Shown: positions 13,060 through 23,889 of the stretch, piece after piece
Layout: each line of letters begins with the position of its first letter
Position numbering within the stretch: the stretch's first letter is position 1
Source: a virus
Virus record (IMG/VR): IMGVR_UViG_3300045988_029552
Coordinates: 1-31,437 of that record
DNA: 31,437 nucleotides
Strand: one strand, 5' to 3'
Made by a program: the position numbers and the translations under genes
Notes under the pieces: model-generated
What the model saw: the letters and a program-made list of their open reading frames with translations, nothing else
Databases searched by the model: none
Told to the model about the DNA's origin: nothing

Positions 13060-14921
13060 TCTATGCTAGTCGTGCAATTACAGTGAGCAACCTCAGCAGG
13101 ATCATCGTCATCACCCGGATACTTCATGCCATTGCTGAACTCTTCGTCCAGGCCCACACGCTCACCGTCCATAGCAGCGTGCGAGTCCCTCGCATTAGGT
13201 CCCGTATGCCATGTCTTGGTAGCAGCACCAGACTGCCTGCCAGCCTCCTGTGTGGCCCAGCCCATAGCCCACGTAACCATAGACCCCGCCATACCTAGTG
13301 CAGCTTCTTTCAGCCAGTGCTCAACAGGTTCCACAGTATCCGGAGGATCATCACCCTCCATCGCCTGCTCCCACTCGTCCTGCTCATCCTCAAGCTCATC
13401 CAGGCTATCGACTATACCCTGAGAGATTCGCTTAGCCCGCTTCTTAAGGTACGACCGAGTAGACCCTTTGTCATAGTCCTCGTCACGCCCCTCAAGCAGC
13501 TTGTTGCCTACCTCGCTGGTCAGCCCTAGATCAAGGTCAAGCAGGTCCTCAGCAAGACTCTCATCAGCTGAAGCTTTAACCTTCAACCGCCCTGACTTAT
13601 ACAACCTCTTACGGGCATGAGCTTCCAGCACCGTCGTGTACCTCTTGACCCACGACTTACGGTCCACACGCAGCGGTCTACTCTTGACCCTAACCTCACC
13701 TGAATTCTGAGAATACCCTCCAGGGTCCACACTCACGTTCAGTGGTGTGATCAGATCATCGCCACCATCGATAGCTGGCAGGTTCAGCCTGGCCCGAGCT
13801 TCATTACGAGTCATGTAAGCAGAGCCCACAGCTGACTGGAACCACTGAGCCTGTTGCTCAAAGTCAGCTTGGAGTTTCTCAGCTACGTTGAATTCAATGT
13901 AGCTGCCTTTAGCCCCACCCATAATAGGAATAAGGAATGCATTAAGCGTAGACTCTATTTCCGCAATAAGCGGGCCCAGAGTATCCCCATAAAGCATTTT
14001 ACGGAATTCCCGAACGTTGCTGTAATTAGCATTATCGAGAATACCGACCATTGTGGGGTTAACGTGGAACGCGTTAGCTACAGTCGAATAAGCTAGCTTA
14101 ACGCCCTCAATGTACTGCTGATCAGTAGCACTGAAGTCCACACGATTAAGAGTCATCCCATCCTCAAGGATGGGAGTGCCCCCAGCGCGCTTACCCGAAC
14201 CGGTATATTTCTCATACCAGTCTTCCCGGAAGGTCTCACGTTGAGCGTCAGTCCAGCGAGGCGCGTCAACAGGGCGCTGAAGCACAGCTGAGACCTTGCC
14301 ACCGCGAGCCCACAACTGCTGCCTGTATTTGCTGGCTTGAATCTGCTCAGCCAGCACTTCTTTCAAGCTGACAATCGTAGCGCTGCATCCGCCAGGATCA
14401 GTCGGGTGGTACCCACCGAAGTAGACCACACGTGAACTGTCCAGAGTCAACTTCTTATCTGACTCGAAGCTAACCTCATGTGTGACCTTACCGAAATTGT
14501 CAGACTTAGTCTGAACCCAGCTAGGGGGCAGGCGGTAGACTTCCCAGTTACCGTTCTGGTTCACTACTGGCCACCAATAAGCGCGGTCGTACAACGCCTT
14601 GTCCACAACCAGAGCGTAGATCAGTTGATACAAGGTCATCGATTCATTAGCTTTGGCGCCAGAGAGAAACCCGCCAACAGGGGACGAGGTATCCCTCAGC
14701 CTGCCCCCATCACTTTGCTTAACATAAGAATGTACGCCTAGATGAGCGATATTCCTGGCGAGGAAGGTAACCACAGTCCGAAGATGTGGTTGAGTCTTGA
14801 ATAGCTTAGCGGCTGAAACACCGGAAAGGTCAACCAGTTCAGTAGGGCCGACCTTATACTGCCGAGGCTCATATGTGGTAATACCCTGAAGCCGGTTAAA
14901 GATACCAGACCAGAAACCCAC
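13050..14921 (-). CDS. portal protein fused to a MuF/SPP1 gp7-like head-morphogenesis domain
   Basis: 623 aa. The N-terminal ~400 aa are portal-like in size and position after TerL. The C-terminus carries the MuF-type motif RDSHAAMDGERV...FSNGMKYPGDDDDPAEVAHCNC. Confidence 0.8.
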   Translation of the reverse strand: MGFWSGIFNRLQGITTYEPRQYKVGPTELVDLSGVSAAKLFKTQPHLRTVVTFLARNIAHLGVHSYVKQSDGGRLRDTSSPVGGFLSGAKANESMTLYQLIYALVVDKALYDRAYWWPVVNQNGNWEVYRLPPSWVQTKSDNFGKVTHEVSFESDKKLTLDSSRVVYFGGYHPTDPGGCSATIVSLKEVLAEQIQASKYRQQLWARGGKVSAVLQRPVDAPRWTDAQRETFREDWYEKYTGSGKRAGGTPILEDGMTLNRVDFSATDQQYIEGVKLAYSTVANAFHVNPTMVGILDNANYSNVREFRKMLYGDTLGPLIAEIESTLNAFLIPIMGGAKGSYIEFNVAEKLQADFEQQAQWFQSAVGSAYMTRNEARARLNLPAIDGGDDLITPLNVSVDPGGYSQNSGEVRVKSRPLRVDRKSWVKRYTTVLEAHARKRLYKSGRLKVKASADESLAEDLLDLDLGLTSEVGNKLLEGRDEDYDKGSTRSYLKKRAKRISQGIVDSLDELEDEQDEWEQAMEGDDPPDTVEPVEHWLKEAALGMAGSMVTWAMGWATQEAGRQSGAATKTWHTGPNARDSHAAMDGERVGLDEEFSNGMKYPGDDDDPAEVAHCNCTTSIDWE

Positions 14922-14963
14922 TATTACACCTCCAATTCAATCCTGTAAACAGTATAACACATT

Positions 14964-16637
14964 TCAAATAGATTCCAGCCCCGACACGCCGTAAGCCGAG
15001 ACTTTTGTTTTGTGGAATTGCCACACGTTCATTGCTGTGACTAGTGCAGCAACGCCATCGATCTTATCTCGCTTCTTTTGCTTAGCAGGTTTAATGTTAC
15101 CAGCGGGATCCATAGCTGGGCGAATATTATCTATTTGCCATGCCATAAGAGGATTGCCATCGTGCTTAATAGCACCCCCCTGCATAACCAGTCTCTGAAT
15201 CTCTTTCATAGGTCCTGACATAGAGACAAACCCCTGACGGACTTTCTCAAGTCTGTACCCATCAGCTTGAAGATCATTAGATACCTGAGTAGCATTCCAC
15301 GGGTCGAACCCTATGCACTGAACATCGTAATGCTTAGCATCCTCATCAATCTGAGCTTTAACAAAATCATAATCAGTGACATTACCTGGAGTCAGCTTAA
15401 TTAGTCCTCGGCTAGCCCACACCGATGCATTACGGTACGTGGCCCTGTCAAGCTCAGCTAGCGCAGCCTCAGGCAAGAAGAAGCGAGGCAGAATCTGGTA
15501 TGTACCGTCCTCTGCTGGGAACAACCACACCAGTGCTGTGAGGTCAGATACCGCTGCAAGGTCCAGGCCGCCATAGCACTGTCTGCCCTCGATGTCCAGC
15601 TGAGCCACAGCCCCCTTCATCCAGTCAGACCTGCTGATCCACGACTCGTCCAGCCTGCCCCTGATGCCTAGATGCAGTCTCAGGAAGCTGGCCTTAGCCA
15701 CAGGGTCAGTCTTAGCCTTATCAGCAGCAGACTGCATGAATGCCCGTGACGGAGTTACGGGGTACAGCGGGTTAGCTTTAGCCCACGTCTCTTCTGACCA
15801 GGGGTCATCTTCAGGGGAAGCAGACCACACCACACAGAATGATCGAGGGGCTTCTACAACCCCCTTACATATGTTGTCAACTAGCTCTCTGCGCTGGTCA
15901 TAGGGTGTACCCACACTGCCGTCATCAGCTGTGGTGATCACCATCGTTAGGGGCTGTTCACGAGCACCTGTACCCGTCTCCATAGCCTCCAGTAGACTCA
16001 ATGACTTATGCACGTGCAACTCATCACAGATAGCACCGTGCAGGTTAGCACCATGTGCCAGATCACCCTTACTTGACACTACCTTGATGACGGAGCTTGT
16101 CCTATCCTGCTTGATCGAGTTATGCAGTGATCGGATGCCGGCCTGCTTCAATAGTGGGCTGTTGTCGACAAGTTGCTTTAGAGGCGTGAAGCACGCCCCA
16201 GCCTGGTCTCTAGACGCCGCACCAATAATAACCTCAGCACCGCCCTCGTGATCACCGAAAGCGAGGACCATAGCTAGTGCAGATGCCAGCGTTGACTTAG
16301 CCCCTTTACGGGGCATTTCAATATAGGCATCCCTATACAGCCTCAGCCAACGCCCTAAAGAATCATCGTAGACTTGCCAGCCAAACAGTGGGGCCACAAT
16401 GTAGGCTATCTGGACATTAGTTAGCTTAAGGGGCTTACCTGCCCACCTGCCTTTAGTGTGCCTTAATGCAGAAATAACCCGAAGAGCATGATCTACGCTC
16501 TTCGGGTTAAATCGCACTTGCATACCATGGACCACACCCCCAGGATCGGGGCACTTGAGGTGTGGTCCCCTTTCAGGTATGTCTAGCTTCCTACTGATTA
16601 AATACTCTTTAATCTCATTAGGGATTACATTATTCAT
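14964..16637 (-). CDS. terL: terminase large subunit
   Basis: 557 aa. Walker A-like MPRKGAKST, Walker B-like AICDELH, C-terminal nuclease-type acidic motifs (GGLDLA, GFDPWN, DGVAAL). Confidence 0.9.
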   Translation of the reverse strand: MNNVIPNEIKEYLISRKLDIPERGPHLKCPDPGGVVHGMQVRFNPKSVDHALRVISALRHTKGRWAGKPLKLTNVQIAYIVAPLFGWQVYDDSLGRWLRLYRDAYIEMPRKGAKSTLASALAMVLAFGDHEGGAEVIIGAASRDQAGACFTPLKQLVDNSPLLKQAGIRSLHNSIKQDRTSSVIKVVSSKGDLAHGANLHGAICDELHVHKSLSLLEAMETGTGAREQPLTMVITTADDGSVGTPYDQRRELVDNICKGVVEAPRSFCVVWSASPEDDPWSEETWAKANPLYPVTPSRAFMQSAADKAKTDPVAKASFLRLHLGIRGRLDESWISRSDWMKGAVAQLDIEGRQCYGGLDLAAVSDLTALVWLFPAEDGTYQILPRFFLPEAALAELDRATYRNASVWASRGLIKLTPGNVTDYDFVKAQIDEDAKHYDVQCIGFDPWNATQVSNDLQADGYRLEKVRQGFVSMSGPMKEIQRLVMQGGAIKHDGNPLMAWQIDNIRPAMDPAGNIKPAKQKKRDKIDGVAALVTAMNVWQFHKTKVSAYGVSGLESI

Positions 16638-19164: not shown

Positions 19165-19230
19165 CTAAACGGCCTCAAACAGGCCAGGGGGTAGCCTAGG
19201 TAGGGTCAGGTGCTGTTAGGCCGTAAATCG
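19165..19230 (+). repeat. 65-bp conserved element, copy 2, with long-range stem (possible U-tract-less terminator)
   Basis: ACGGCCT..AACAG (19169-19182) pairs with CTGTTAGGCCGT (19213-19224), 12 bp. Located just after gene A. Confidence 0.55.
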
Positions 19231-19245
19231 AGGATGCCTACACGC

Positions 19246-19274
19246 TTTACGAGGTGTCTGGGTAGTGCTAGGGT
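19246..19274 (+). promoter_or_regulatory. promoter P4, TTTACG-N17-TGcTAGGGT, leaderless (ATG 7 nt after the -10)
   Basis: cTTTACGaggtgtctgggtaGTGCTAGGGTagttaccATG. Confidence 0.5.
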
Positions 19275-19281
19275 AGTTACC

Positions 19282-19542
19282 ATGACTTGGACATGCAGAG
19301 ACTGCAAGAAGACCATCGTCGGCTACAAGACCGAGCACTGCCCTGAGTGCCACGAGACGTTCACCCGCACCAAGGCAGGCGACAAGCACCGTACGGGCCG
19401 GCACGGGGTGACTGAGGGCCCAGACCGACGTAGGTGTCTGACCCCAGCTGAGTTGGCCGCTAAGGGTATGACCCAGAACTCGAAGGGTTACTGGACCACC
19501 GGGGAGACATTCGAGAATGCCTCTGAAAGCTTCCACCGGTAG
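19282..19542 (+). CDS. zinc-ribbon protein of the FDxHR type
   Basis: ORF 19210..19542 trimmed to MTWTCRDCKK. The C-x2-C ... H-C-x2-C-H-x-T-F ... D-K-H-R pattern matches the actinobacterial/actinophage FDxHR zinc-binding family as I recall it. Confidence 0.65.
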   Translation: MTWTCRDCKKTIVGYKTEHCPECHETFTRTKAGDKHRTGRHGVTEGPDRRRCLTPAELAAKGMTQNSKGYWTTGETFENASESFHR

Positions 19543-20224: not shown

Positions 20225-20431
20225 ATGCTTAAGTTCGTCGGTTACATGGTTGCTATTGTTGCTGCTGTTGCTGCTGCACTAGGTGTCGGCGTCCTGGTCA
20301 CCTGGATGATCTTCTACGGTCTGTGGTATGTGGCCCTCATCCTGATGGCCATCGTTGGTGTGTGGTTGGGGTTCAAGTACGAGGCTAAGTACGGCTACAA
20401 GGACGAGTTCGGTGATTGGGGTGAATTCTGA
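20225..20431 (+). CDS. small membrane protein (two TM helices)
   Basis: ORF 20159..20431 trimmed to MLKFVGYMVAIVAAVAAALGVGVLV...YVALILMAIVGVWLGF. GAAAGG lies 9 nt upstream. The upstream part of the ORF overlaps the promoter. Confidence 0.6.
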   Translation: MLKFVGYMVAIVAAVAAALGVGVLVTWMIFYGLWYVALILMAIVGVWLGFKYEAKYGYKDEFGDWGEF

Positions 20432-20724
20432 TGTATGAGTTCGGTGACCTGCCTCGGATGATCCAGAACATTAAGCCCGAGCGGAGCTGTATGTCGTCTG
20501 TGGTCTACCGTAACCCTGATGGGCTATGGTGGGTGGCCGGTAAGTATTACCCGGAGCCTGGTGGGGCGTATATACACCCTGTCATGAGGCTGCTGAATGA
20601 GATTGGGGGGTCACGACCGGGTATTGCATATGTAATTGATCGTATTTGCCCCACCTGTGAGGCTATTCTGAAGACTTTTCCACAGTTCGACAAGGTTATT
20701 GTTAGGAGCTATAGTGATCAATGA
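20431..20724 (+). CDS. hypothetical protein (97 aa) with an H-P-V ... C-P-T-C pattern
   Basis: TGATG coupling to the upstream gene. No confident family assignment. Confidence 0.55.
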   Translation: MYEFGDLPRMIQNIKPERSCMSSVVYRNPDGLWWVAGKYYPEPGGAYIHPVMRLLNEIGGSRPGIAYVIDRICPTCEAILKTFPQFDKVIVRSYSDQ

Positions 20725-21469
20725 GATTGAGCTAGCCTATGAGATTGCCCAGCAATCCTCCCACCCTGAATGCAAGGTAGGTTGCTATTTCGTAAACACC
20801 TCTGGGGATTACCAGATATCCACACATAACGTTGAGCTTGGCCCTAAATGCCACGACGTTGCACCTGACGGGCAGTGCCTTGAGTACATCCACGCGGAGG
20901 TGTGGGCCTCTCAACAGCTTATGGAGCTGCCCTATCGTCTTAGGGAGGGACATATAGCTATGACCTACGAACCTTGCGCACCTTGTGCTAGAGCACTGCT
21001 TCTGGCGGGGTTCAGGGGGTCTCTGGAGTATGACAGGCCGTGGCTCGATCCAGCTCTGAAAACATCAGACTGGCGAGAGCATAAGCAGGGTATAACCGTA
21101 CTGCGTAATTCCTGTGTTGAGGTCATTAGATCTCGTCCCGAGTACGGCGCAAGGCACTATAACGACCTTAATTTCGGTGACTGGTATCCACAATGTATGG
21201 AAGTGCTTAAATGGGGCGAAATCAGGTATAGGGACCTTAATAAAAAGGCCTGTATGGATATTCTTAATACCTTCAACAGGTATTTGGGTATGGGGTTCAG
21301 TGTTAGTCAAGAGGTTATTTATGGGGTTACTAATTACACCCTGGCTAAGAATTTCAATAAGGCAGTTAAAGACTTTACGCACTGGGCTAATTACGGTAGC
21401 TCATGGGTTAAGGAACCGGGTTACATAATTGTCAAATGTGTATCGGAGGTGCATCGTCGTGCTGTGTGA
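20714..21469 (+). CDS. dCMP/cytidine deaminase-fold domain fused to a ~140-aa C-terminal domain of unknown function
   Basis: YIHAEVWA ... YEPCAPCARALLLAGF is the H-A-E / P-C-x2-C zinc motif. Start placed at the GTG at 20714, 5 nt after AGGAG (the ORF track starts at a TTG at 20699). Confidence 0.75.
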   Translation: MINEIELAYEIAQQSSHPECKVGCYFVNTSGDYQISTHNVELGPKCHDVAPDGQCLEYIHAEVWASQQLMELPYRLREGHIAMTYEPCAPCARALLLAGFRGSLEYDRPWLDPALKTSDWREHKQGITVLRNSCVEVIRSRPEYGARHYNDLNFGDWYPQCMEVLKWGEIRYRDLNKKACMDILNTFNRYLGMGFSVSQEVIYGVTNYTLAKNFNKAVKDFTHWANYGSSWVKEPGYIIVKCVSEVHRRAV

Positions 21470-22265
21470 GTATGATCGAGCTATACACAACCTGTCTAGA
21501 CAGGCTGCTGAGTTAGTCACAGAAGGACAGGAGCACCCGTACTGGTGCTACGGGTCATGGAGTGTGGTATACACTCATGCCCCATTGTCCCAGACCCGTA
21601 GGGTGTCTGTGGACATGGCTCAGAGAGAGCTGTACTGGATGCTGAGCGGGTCAGGGGCCACACAGCACGACAGGTGCGCTAGAATCACCCCCGACGTGGC
21701 GCGCATGTGGTCTCCGTGGGCTGAGGATGAGCTAGGGCCTATGTACGGTGTCCAGTGGCGCTATGGTGGTCCTGACGGGTTGTATGATGCTATCCAGGAC
21801 GTTGTAGACAGACTTGTAGACAACCCTACAACCAAGCGCGCTGTGTGGACTGCCTGGCAGGGGTATGAGGTCGGGGCTATGCGTATCCCACCATGCCCTG
21901 TTACTTGGGCATGGAATGTTATAGGCGGCAAGGTCAATCTCGATATCTTCGCCAGGTCCACAGACGTCGTGTGCGGTATGCCCTACGATACTCTTGAAGG
22001 GTGGATGCTTATCCATCTTATGACTAACACACTGAAATTTCACGGGCATGATGTTAGGCCAGGTAAGCTTCGATTTACCACTGCAAATGCTCACGTGTAT
22101 TGCCAGAACCTGGACGTTTGGCATAGGATGTTGATGCCTGCTAGGGTAGAGAAGGAGGTTGAGTTCATACCGTCTAAGCAAGGTGTGCTAGAGTTCAAAG
22201 GTAAAGGTTTTAAGGCGGTCAATTATAAGGCGCCTATTTATTCAGCGAAAGTGGTGGTTGTTTAA
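21456..22265 (+). CDS. thymidylate-synthase-fold pyrimidine C5 (hydroxy)methylase; Asp at the ThyA Asn177 position suggests a dCMP substrate
   Basis: ELYWML, GPMYGVQWR, NPTTKRAVWTAW, IPPC, ARSTDVVCGMPYD and ANAHVY align with E. coli ThyA blocks with identical C-(20)-R-(11)-N/D spacing. Start placed at the GTG at 21456, 6 nt after GGAGG (the ORF track starts at a TTG at 21429). Confidence 0.75.
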   Translation, partial: VVLCEYDRAIHNLSRQAAELVTEGQEHPYWCYGSWSVVYTHAPLSQTRRVSVDMAQRELYWMLSGSGATQHDRCARITPDVARMWSPWAEDELGPMYGVQWRYGGPDGLYDAIQDVVDRLVDNPTTKRAVWTAWQGYEVGAMRIPPCPVTWAWNVIGGKVNLDIFARSTDVVCGMPYDTLEGWMLIHLMTNTLKFHGHDVRPGKLRFTTANAHVYCQNLDVWHRMLMPARVEKEVEFIPSKQGVLEFKGKGFKAVNYKAPIYSAKVVVV

Positions 22266-22525
22266 TGTTGAAGTTGTTTTTCCTCGGTGCTTCGTGGTGC
22301 TCACAGTGCCCACAATCTAAGGCTAATTTTGAAAGGGCTATGCAAAAGTTCCCTTATCTTGGTTGGGACTATGTTGATGTTGAGGTCAATCCTGACCTAG
22401 GGCGTAAATTCAATGTCATGTCTGTCCCAACTGTGATAGCCTTGCGCGAGGGTGTGGAGGTTGCTAGGATGGGTACGGGGACCACACTCCAGTACAAGAA
22501 GATGATCGAAGGAGCACTAAACTAA
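22265..22525 (+). CDS. thioredoxin/glutaredoxin-like redox protein
   Basis: 86 aa. FFLGASWCSQCPQ is a W-C-x-x-C active site. VPTV cis-Pro-type motif. TAATG coupling to the ThyA-fold gene. Confidence 0.8.
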   Translation: MLKLFFLGASWCSQCPQSKANFERAMQKFPYLGWDYVDVEVNPDLGRKFNVMSVPTVIALREGVEVARMGTGTTLQYKKMIEGALN

Positions 22526-23889
22526 TGTTTGAGCCAGTCACTAAGCCTCGAGACTATCAGCTGGCCGCGGTTAAGTGGCTGGCTAAAAAAGAGCACGGTA
22601 TGCTCCTTATGGACACACGTACGGGTAAGACTAAGACAACCATCGACTGGCTGTCGTGGCTTATGCACAACCGCGACGTTAGGTATATCGTTGTGGTCTG
22701 CCCTAAGATCGCTATCGATGTGTGGGTCAGGGAACTACAGCAGCATTACTGGGGACCTGAGGCTGACATAGTCTACGACGGGGCCTATGAGGCCACAGCA
22801 CTGCCTAAGATCGTGCTAATCAACTACGATAAGTTCTCTAGGGGTTACCCTAAAGGACTATTCAAGGGTGCCGAGTACCACGCCTCGGCTATCGTGCTGG
22901 ATGAATCCCACCTCATCAAGACACCTGCGAGTAAACGGTCTAGGCGTATTGTTGGTATGGCTAAATCGGCCCGGTACAGGGTATGTCTGACAGCCACCCC
23001 TGTGGGTAAGCGCAATATGGTGGGGGAGATTTATCCACAGCTGGTGTTCTCTGACCCGTCTATTAGGTCGGAATTCCCGTCAGCCAAATCATTCCGAGAG
23101 TACTTCGGGGAATGGTCGAATTTTGGGGGCTTCCCTAAGTATCTCGGTCCCCGTAATACCGAGGAATACCAAGCACTTATTAAAGCGCACTCCATAAGTA
23201 TTAGCCGTGAGGACGCCATCGGTACCAAGGCTATTGATGAAGAGGCAGTGCCTGTATTCCTTGGGGAGTCTCGTAAGGCCATCTATCAGGCTATGGTGAG
23301 GGATGAGCTAGACATCCTGGAGGCTCAAGGCGAGTCTGGGGCTGACTCAGTGCTGGCCCTGTTCGCTAAGTGCCGTAGGCTAGCTGAGGGGCTCTCTACA
23401 GGTGAGGGCAGGCTAGTGTACAGCGGCCATAAGCTTGTAGCCCTGGATGCCCTCAGGGAGGCCTACAGAGGGCGTATAGTGGTAGCTAGCGAGCTACTTG
23501 ACTCCCTCACCGCAATAGAGCGACATCTAGACCACACCTACAGGCTGGATGGTAATGTCGAGGACAAGACATCGGTCTTGGACGCCTGGAAAGTTTCTAA
23601 GGACGGCGTGCTGGTAGTCAACCCACAGGTTGCTGCTACTGCTGTGGACATGAGGGAGGCCGAAGTGCTGGTGTGGTACGGGCTACCTACCTCGGCGTTG
23701 ACCTATCGCCAGATGAGTGATAGAGTAGCTCTAGCGGATGACCCAAAGGTCATTGTGATGGTGACCCAGGACACCGTAGAGGACTCCCTGTGGGCCTCTC
23801 TTCAGGAGGCCACTGAGTTCCGCAAGGAAATTATGAATAACACTCGCAACTACCTACTAGGAGAGACTTATGCTAGTGAATCCGTCTGA
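22525..23889 (+). CDS. SNF2/DEAD-like superfamily-2 helicase
   Basis: 454 aa. Motif I MDTRTGKTKT, motif II VLDESHLIK, motif III-like LTATP, C-terminal helicase-like region. Confidence 0.8.
   Translation: MFEPVTKPRDYQLAAVKWLAKKEHGMLLMDTRTGKTKTTIDWLSWLMHNRDVRYIVVVCPKIAIDVWVRELQQHYWGPEADIVYDGAYEATALPKIVLINYDKFSRGYPKGLFKGAEYHASAIVLDESHLIKTPASKRSRRIVGMAKSARYRVCLTATPVGKRNMVGEIYPQLVFSDPSIRSEFPSAKSFREYFGEWSNFGGFPKYLGPRNTEEYQALIKAHSISISREDAIGTKAIDEEAVPVFLGESRKAIYQAMVRDELDILEAQGESGADSVLALFAKCRRLAEGLSTGEGRLVYSGHKLVALDALREAYRGRIVVASELLDSLTAIERHLDHTYRLDGNVEDKTSVLDAWKVSKDGVLVVNPQVAATAVDMREAEVLVWYGLPTSALTYRQMSDRVALADDPKVIVMVTQDTVEDSLWASLQEATEFRKEIMNNTRNYLLGETYASESV

Follow-up and report, generated by a model that had tools for sequence, protein, structure and literature searches.

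The sequence analyzed here, referred to as the window, is a 31,437-nt stretch of viral DNA (IMG/VR record IMGVR_UViG_3300045988_029552) that corresponds approximately to the whole genome (~31 kb) of a tailed phage. The structural genes (terminase, portal, major head protein, and tape measure) occupy its minus-strand left half, and the plus-strand right half forms a replication module with an SNF2 helicase, a family-A DNA polymerase, a PD-(D/E)XK exonuclease, a Sak4-like ATPase, a resolvase-like endonuclease, and a primase-helicase. This module is headed by an operon of overlapping genes, which holds a gene of the deoxycytidine monophosphate (dCMP) deaminase family and a gene for a protein with the fold of thymidylate synthase (TS; ThyA in E. 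coli). An earlier reading of the window, hereafter the original prediction, had proposed the ThyA-fold protein as a candidate dCMP C5-(hydroxy)methylase; it had overlooked the upstream deaminase gene (20714..21469), which bears directly on the interpretation. The features of the two genes are as follows:

20714..21469, plus strand: dCMP-deaminase-family protein, 251 aa (PF00383, E-value 3.6e-10)
21149..21466, plus strand: C-terminal extension of the deaminase, ~105 aa, present only in this phage group and predicted to be helical
21445..21449, plus strand: GGAGG ribosome-binding site inside the 3′ end of the deaminase gene, 9 nt before the GTG start of the ThyA-fold gene
21459..22265, plus strand: ThyA-fold protein, 268 aa, predicted dCMP C5-methyltransferase (PF00303, E-value 1.4e-32; GTG start, TAA stop)
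21885..21899, plus strand: codons Ile143-Pro144-Pro145-Cys146-Pro147 (catalytic Cys, hydrophobic residue at 143, His147 changed to Pro)
21894-21896, plus strand: Cys146 codon TGC (HMMER and MAFFT alignments)
21897-21899, plus strand: Pro147 codon CCT (HMMER and MAFFT alignments)
21954-21956, plus strand: Arg166 codon AGG (HMMER and MAFFT alignments)
21987..21989, plus strand: Asp177 codon GAT, the pyrimidine-specificity position (Asn in dUMP enzymes), from HMMER, MAFFT, and a reading of the DNA
22227..22262, plus strand: TS-type C-terminal tail, 12 residues after Tyr256, ending in KVVVV (anchored on the conserved Tyr)

Identity and active site of the ThyA-fold protein

The ThyA fold, assigned by eye in the original prediction, was recovered with Pfam (PF00303, 113 bits vs. 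a cut-off of 24.3) and with phmmer, which matched E. coli TS structures at ~1e-22. The AlphaFold2 model of the protein had a mean pLDDT (predicted local distance difference test) of 94.6, and a Foldseek search returned E. coli TS chains as its best structural matches, with template modelling (TM) scores of 0.83–0.84. The model reached TM scores of 0.79–0.85 with true TS vs. a TMq of 0.59 with a model of the type of gp42, the dCMP hydroxymethylase of phage T4, and BLASTP gave 96 bits to E. coli ThyA vs. 25 bits to gp42.

The start codon had to be moved, as the position proposed before (21456) holds an in-frame GTC. We placed the start at the GTG at 21459, behind the GGAGG listed above, in agreement with seven close homologs that are all 268 aa long. 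With this start the residue numbers are exactly those of E. coli ThyA, and this numbering is used throughout. Residues were placed with an HMMER alignment to E. coli TS and with independent MAFFT alignments, which agreed with each other and upheld the positions given originally for the catalytic Cys146, for Arg166, and for Asp177; a proper alignment thus puts Asp and not Asn at the 177-equivalent position. Glu58, Trp80, Trp83, Tyr94, Arg127, Cys146, Arg166, Ser167, Asp169, His207, and Tyr209 are kept relative to E. coli ThyA, and with them the proton relay (Glu58/Tyr94) and the folate contacts (Asp169, Trp80, and Trp83). The catalytic residues Cys146, Arg166-Ser167, Asp169, Glu58, Tyr94, His207, and Tyr209 also occur in the close homologs. 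Five positions differ (N177D, H147P, Q165A, D205N, and R126K), so that the set that reads uracil in TS (Asn177, Gln165, and His147) is replaced as a whole by Asp177, Ala165, and Pro147; the Pro at 147 had been recognized before.

The DRTGTGT phosphate loop, which had been described as unrecognizable, is indeed missing: the position of Arg21 is Gln in the query and in 7/7 close homologs, and of the Arg126′/Arg127′ phosphate clamp only Arg127 is left. The active-site-closing tail of TS is present at E. coli length and with an aliphatic end, VVV or VIV across the clade. A C-terminal extension of about 6 aa, as claimed originally, does not exist: Y256 (Y252 in E. coli) is followed by 12 residues in both proteins, ending in ..AKVVVV and ..KAPVAI, respectively, and the error arose because 'KAP' had been matched by eye. 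All NCBIfam thymidylate-synthase cut-offs were failed (103.7 vs. 327 and 85.1 vs. 108.35 bits; NF002497, TIGR03284, and others), as they are by the dCMP methylase of Xanthomonas phage Xp12 and by T4 gp42. Specificity residues that are changed in an otherwise intact catalytic and folate machinery lend computational support to the proposal of a dCMP C5-(hydroxy)methylase.

Position 177 among relatives

In order to place the protein among its relatives, 4,695 sequences were retrieved from 1.84 billion representative proteins; since only five of them scored below 1e-30, the protein belongs to a small and deep lineage. A residue table was built from 156 sequences (the best 150 of the 4,695 representatives together with the close homologs), in which position 177 is Asn in 112 cases and Asp in 42, and a residue other than His at 147 pairs almost perfectly with Asp177. 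The combination Leu/His/Asn at positions 143/147/177 accounted for 108 sequences and Leu/Pro/Asp for 17, while Ile/Pro/Asp, Leu/Thr/Asp, and Asn/Pro/Asp were found four times each. Asp177 is invariant among the close sequences (37/37). The same two positions, 147 and 177, set apart viral contigs with modified and unmodified cytosine in the MetaGPA work (PMC8670742), and the exchange N177D turns TS into a dCMP methylase, according to the account of Liu and Santi 1992 and Hardy and Nalivaika 1992 that is given in PMC8670742.

The close relatives form two active-site variants, Ile143/Pro147 (the window type) and Leu143/Thr147 (with a Thr as in gp42), with Asp177 and Ala165 in all of them (entries P0002, P0004, P0006, P0007, and L032-L036). 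The nearest outgroup of the clade, P0009 (L004, a 950-bp contig), has Pro147 together with Asn177. It shares 36% identity with the query by BLASTP (42% over the HMMER-matched stretch) and is the sole Pro147/Asn177 sequence among the 156; this combination may have arisen by natural reversion or may be erroneous. In a neighbour-joining tree of 132 ThyA-family sequences Asp177 was polyphyletic. The phylogeny that had been recommended as a check placed the clade apart from both Xp12 and gp42, but the tree was too star-like for the TS lineage from which the clade originated to be read from it.

These residues bear on a conventional explanation of the locus, namely an ordinary TS that is fed by the upstream deaminase (dCMP to dUMP to dTMP) in a phage with canonical DNA. 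Many phages have a deaminase and a TS that together make dTMP (e.g., cd/td in T4, or S-TIM5), the fold, the folate site, and the C-terminal tail are TS-like, and the outgroup P0009 has retained Asn177, yet an enzyme of this kind is hard to reconcile with the replacement of Asn177, His147, and Gln165 altogether, with an Asp177 that does not vary in the 37 close sequences, with the reported effect of N177D, and with scores far under the TS equivalog cut-offs. We therefore regard an ordinary TS as improbable.

The deaminase gene and its pairing with the ThyA-fold gene

The deaminase gene overlaps the gene of the TS homolog by 11 nt. Its HAE and PCxxC zinc-site motifs are invariant in 28 homologs, and its top Foldseek matches are dCMP deaminases (S. 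mutans, PBCV-1 bi-DCD, S-TIM5, human, and T4), among which PBCV-1 bi-DCD is a bifunctional dCMP/dCTP deaminase. We predict from these matches that it converts a pool of 5-methyl-dC nucleotides into thymidine nucleotides, or dCMP into dUMP. Selectivity for 5-methylcytosine (5mC), as described for the 5mC-selective deaminases (mSCD), is a polyphyletic trait without a published sequence signature (bioRxiv 10.1101/2024.12.05.627091).

Homologous deaminases form 66 clusters, in which the protein has 251 aa in all but two (249–252), plus one fragment of 156 aa. The ~105-aa C-terminal extension contains a conserved YGVTNxTLAKNFN motif, and the 66 clusters share 69–89% identity; it is present in 30/30 close IMG/VR loci and absent from the 155-aa deaminase of the more distant relative L005. 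AlphaFold2 predicted it as helical at low confidence (pLDDT 36–76), too weak to serve as a search model, and it had no match in Pfam at E < 0.05 and none among the PHROGs. An origin by fusion of the unknown 139-aa and 134-aa genes or of the dUTPase-like genes of L005 and L006 was rejected, as BLASTP found no similarity. MazG-type pyrophosphatases depend on clustered acidic metal-binding residues, and a domain of this type was dropped as well, since the invariant acidic residues of the extension are only one Asp and one Glu.

A published survey of viral contigs provides the background for the pairing (bioRxiv 10.1101/2024.12.05.627091). Of the dCMP-deaminase-family genes on cytosine-modified contigs, 70% had a TS homolog at a distance of no more than 3 kb, vs. 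6% of those on unmodified contigs, and 85% of the deaminase-adjacent TS homologs on modified contigs had cytosine-type residues, which further argues against an ordinary TS at our locus. In the same work, 5/7 TS homologs tested made 5-methyl-dCMP (5mdCMP), and one partner deaminase converted 5mdCTP into dTTP, which suggests that T is drawn from the 5mC pool. The deaminase and TS pair of the window fits the published pattern (Xp12, Pseudomonas phage PaMx74, and the MetaGPA contigs).

The association recurs in IMG/VR. The three genes and their order are unchanged in all of the close relatives (30/30), whose residues at positions 143/147/165/169/177 read IPADD or LTADD, and two more distant relatives combine Asp177 with a deaminase and a dUTPase/DCD-like gene. 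A deaminase was located within 5 kb at 32/32 loci of the Asp177 clade, and a detectable deaminase homolog at 2/47 loci with a canonical, LHQDN-type TS that the same scan had recovered; as the 32 loci represent two lineages only, this is corroboration and not independent statistics. The Asp177 homologs of L005 and L006, two more distant relatives that belong to the same type of phage, are 35–38% identical and are each adjoined by a nucleotide pyrophosphatase gene (L005 7589-8014 and L006 9243-9875), one trimeric dUTPase/DCD-like and the other dUTPase_2-like, and the dUTPase_2 neighbour resembles the T4 gp56 dCTPase (E-value 9e-8, pairwise BLASTP). A neighbourhood of this kind again assigns the enzyme to the editing of the dC-nucleotide pool. 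Neither the dUTPase/DCD-like nor the gp56-like gene is present in the window phage.

A 408-aa viral protein annotated with a CMP/dCMP-type deaminase domain (BFVD entry A0A8S5MQL3) matched the TS-fold model, and natural fusions of deaminase and TS may therefore exist; otherwise the Foldseek search of BFVD added no functional discrimination.

Product of the reaction

The original prediction had left open whether the product would be methylated or hydroxymethylated. Methyl products are correlated with a bulky hydrophobic residue at position 143, hydroxymethyl products with an acidic one (Asp or Glu; PMC13326640). In the ternary-complex structure of the T4 enzyme water is activated by Asp145, the equivalent of 143, and gp42 furthermore has Val85 in place of Trp83 and has lost the C-terminal tail (PMC6400193). 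A third activity, that of the flavin-dependent 5-hydroxy-dCMP synthases, is marked by D169N (PMC13326640). The window protein has the methyl-type features, i.e., Ile143 (Leu in the sister sub-group), Asp169, Trp83, and a full tail. The acidic 143, small residue 83, and missing tail of gp42 were not found in it, nor was the D169N of RB69 gp48, as Asp169 is invariant. Position 143 with the tail, position 169, and the overall structure all three point to hydride transfer and 5-methyl-dCMP, and the sequence features thus favour a methyl product.

A dCMP hydroxymethylase like T4 gp42 would make 5-hydroxymethyl-dCMP, and the DNA would contain 5-hydroxymethylcytosine with or without further decoration. 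We consider such an enzyme unlikely in view of the Ile or Leu at 143 instead of Asp or Glu, of Trp83 and the full TS-type tail, and of the bit scores (25 to gp42 vs. 96 to E. coli TS), even though Asp177 is common to gp42, Thr147 appears, as in gp42, in a subset of the close relatives, and the deaminases adjoining such genes act also on 5-hydroxymethyl-dC nucleotides (bioRxiv 10.1101/2024.12.05.627091). Among accessory genes, no dihydrofolate reductase (DHFR) and no dNMP kinase were recognized in the window, and the lack of DHFR fits a reaction that regenerates tetrahydrofolate (THF). By contrast, a glycosyltransferase, a dCTPase, and a kinase, which had not been seen in the original prediction, were again not detected in the window by Pfam, PHROGs, tblastn, or a P-loop scan, and homologs of the T4 gp56 dCTPase and small P-loop kinases were sought there and not found; these absences count against a hydroxymethylase.

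A different C5 product is conceivable as well: 5-hydroxy-dCMP made by a flavin mechanism (as by RB69 gp48), an undescribed product, or a reaction on a substrate other than a 5′-monophosphate. Unexpected chemistry has recently been demonstrated for the ThyA fold (PMC13326640), the clade is deep and uncharacterized, the phosphate site is unusual (Gln at 21 and Lys at 126), and there is no dCTPase to furnish dCMP. Asp169 is nevertheless invariant where the flavin enzymes have the diagnostic Asn, a monophosphate site persists in Arg166, Ser167, and Arg127, and T4 gp42 itself has Lys at Arg21, which makes products of this kind very unlikely in our judgement.

Proposed pathway and its weight

Based on the residues, the models, and the gene pairing, our preferred explanation, to which we assign a somewhat better than even chance, is that the ThyA-fold gene encodes a folate-dependent dCMP C5-methyltransferase (5-methyl-dCMP synthase); the phage probably places 5mC in its own DNA. 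In brief, Cys146 would attack C6 of dCMP, Asp177 would protonate and orient N3/N4 of the cytosine, and the methylene group of methylenetetrahydrofolate would be added at C5. The closed hydrophobic site (Ile143, Trp83, and the tail) would then lead to hydride transfer from THF, giving a methyl group and dihydrofolate, and not to the addition of water. Host kinases would convert 5mdCMP to 5mdCTP, the phage family-A polymerase would incorporate it, and 5mC would result in the virion DNA. The translationally coupled deaminase would most likely turn a part of the 5-methyl-dC pool into thymidine nucleotides, so that one methylase would feed both 5mC and T; a deaminase route of this type has been proposed for Xp12-type phages.

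Several observations weigh against the methyltransferase assignment or against its consequences for the virion DNA. The rule for position 143 is a correlation only, and both Xp12 and PaMx74, whose DNA is reported with 5mC, have Asn143; more generally, the discriminators that we applied are correlations obtained from other lineages. The identity to the Xp12 and PaMx74 methylases is 29–32% over partial length and the protein forms its own deep lineage, hence the residue rules are extrapolated. The phosphate site appears weaker than usual, given the Gln and Lys in place of Arg21 and Arg126, and the nearest outgroup of the clade combines Pro147 with Asn177. A complete replacement of cytosine is doubtful, because the window lacks the NTP pyrophosphatase and the DHFR that adjoin the Xp12 and PaMx74 genes, and no dNMP kinase was recognized in it. 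None of the unusual features of the locus (the missing accessory genes, the extra domain of the deaminase, the thioredoxin-like gene, the phosphate site, and the outgroup sequence) contradicts a dCMP methyltransferase, but the extent of replacement is not inferable from them.

A further point of this kind comes from restriction sites. CTGCAG (PstI-type) has 0 copies in the window, although half-sites number 61 and a Markov model predicts ~10 copies; it is likewise absent from 268 kb of the 30 close relatives (L010-L039) and from the L005-type contigs (L005, L040, and L041), but L006 has 7 copies in 16.8 kb. The pattern points to a CTGCAG-specific restriction system of the host as a strong selective force, one that the presumed modification does not neutralize, so any modification would leave the DNA unprotected from at least one C-containing restriction specificity. 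For an ordinary TS, the same avoidance would simply reflect a continuing exposure of the phage to restriction. No avoidance of 4-mer palindromes was detected in the window, which is weak and not decisive evidence, compatible with globally modified DNA. TCGA and TTAA were mildly over-represented over the whole window (observed/expected ratios of 1.28 and 1.32, z ~2.8).

We also considered a more far-reaching version, in which a minimal pathway of one divergent ThyA-fold methylase and one deaminase supplies both modified C and T without dCTPase, dNMP kinase, or DHFR, and in which the C-terminal domain of the deaminase has a function that is absent from Xp12-type systems (it might, for instance, tether the methylase, regulate it, or take the place of dCTP exclusion), or the enzyme makes an undescribed C5 product. 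Such an arrangement is improbable in our estimation.

Comparison with known systems and significance

Xanthomonas phage Xp12 and Pseudomonas phage PaMx74 have virion DNA in which 5mC replaces C. Their enzymes share with the window protein the ThyA fold, Asp177, Pro147, a residue other than Gln at 165, the conserved Asp169, His207 and Tyr209 in an 'AHxY' context, and an aliphatic tail end, and in both systems a dCMP-deaminase-family gene is adjacent and the replication module includes a family-A polymerase. The window protein differs from them by Ile143 (Asn143 in theirs), by the lack of a DRTG/ERTG-type Arg21 loop, by 29–32% identity, and by a separate branch in the neighbour-joining tree. The module of Xp12 is ordered PRA-PH pyrophosphatase, TS homolog, dCMP deaminase, and DHFR, and that of PaMx74 is the same, whereas in the window the deaminase precedes the TS homolog, no flanking PRA-PH/MazG-type pyrophosphatase and no DHFR are present, the deaminase has an extra domain of ~105 aa, and a thioredoxin-like gene follows the TS homolog.

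The viral TS homologs found with MetaGPA (Yang et al. 2021 eLife; Yang et al. 2024 bioRxiv) resemble the window protein in the diagnostic residues 147 and 177 and in the pairing with a PF00383 deaminase; DNA_pol_A is among their commonest neighbours, and 5mdCMP is predicted as product by the same rule. These publications do not mention the lineage-specific C-terminal domain seen in the window deaminase. E. coli ThyA (EC 2.1.1.45) is the best structural match (TM 0.84), with the same length, numbering, and tail length, but the window protein departs from it by Asn177Asp, His147Pro, Gln165Ala, Arg21Gln, Arg126Lys, and Asp205Asn and reaches only 104 bits vs. the cut-off of 327. With T4 gp42 it shares the Asp at the 177-equivalent (Asp179 in gp42), the catalytic Cys, Glu, and Tyr, and the Arg-Ser-x-Asp motif; gp42 has Asp145, Val85, and no tail (PMC6400193), in contrast to the Ile, the Trp, and the full tail of the query, and the gp56, gp1, and glucosyltransferase context of T4 is absent from the window. 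The enzyme is most likely a new and divergent addition to the dCMP methylases of the Xp12/MetaGPA type; as both the Asn-to-Asp switch and the pairing of TS with a deaminase are already established, the value of the assignment lies in annotation and enzyme mining and not in new biology.

If the assignment is true, 5-methylcytosine made at the nucleotide level by only two small genes would be a trait of an abundant tailed-phage group with genomes of ~31 kb, represented by ~30 near-complete genomes in IMG/VR and by 66 clusters of the deaminase. This would bear on the sequencing of these phages and on restriction evasion, and the group would be a source of a compact dCMP methylase and possibly of a 5mC-selective deaminase as used in methylome sequencing. 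Several contigs of the relatives have IMG sample identifiers that probably belong to human-associated datasets.

Gene neighbourhood and additional observations

The contigs of the close relatives measure 30–32 kb. When 12 kb of the window was compared by megablast with 50,697 phage records, no cultured phage showed similarity at the DNA level, and tblastn of the ThyA-fold protein against phage records reached ~30% identity at best; there is consequently no cultured relative to lend evidence. The other genes of the operon are:

20431..20724, plus strand: 97-aa protein with no assigned function, first gene of the operon
22265..22525, plus strand: thioredoxin-like protein, 86 aa, with a WCSQC motif (PF00085, E-value 2.1e-07)
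22525..23889, plus strand: SNF2 helicase, last of the listed operon genes

The thioredoxin-like gene, whose start overlaps the stop of the ThyA-fold gene (TAATG), lies between the ThyA-fold gene and that of the SNF2 helicase in a translationally coupled arrangement. In L002, in L003, and in all 30 close IMG/VR loci it likewise follows the TS homolog. No ribonucleotide reductase, a possible partner of the thioredoxin-like protein, was recognized in the window; one idea, by analogy with T7, is that it may serve as a processivity factor for the family-A polymerase.

The close relative L002 encodes, at 14763-15155 on the minus strand, a 235-aa protein carrying a domain of glycoside hydrolase family 16. 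The window has a 235-aa open reading frame on the minus strand (485-1192) as a possible counterpart; if the two are equivalent, it could be a lysis or depolymerase enzyme and provide a clue to the host. Finally, upstream of the nucleotide-metabolism genes (19210-19542, plus strand), the window encodes a small protein in which a zinc-binding domain of the phage FDXHR type was recognized (PF24071, E-value 6.8e-13).

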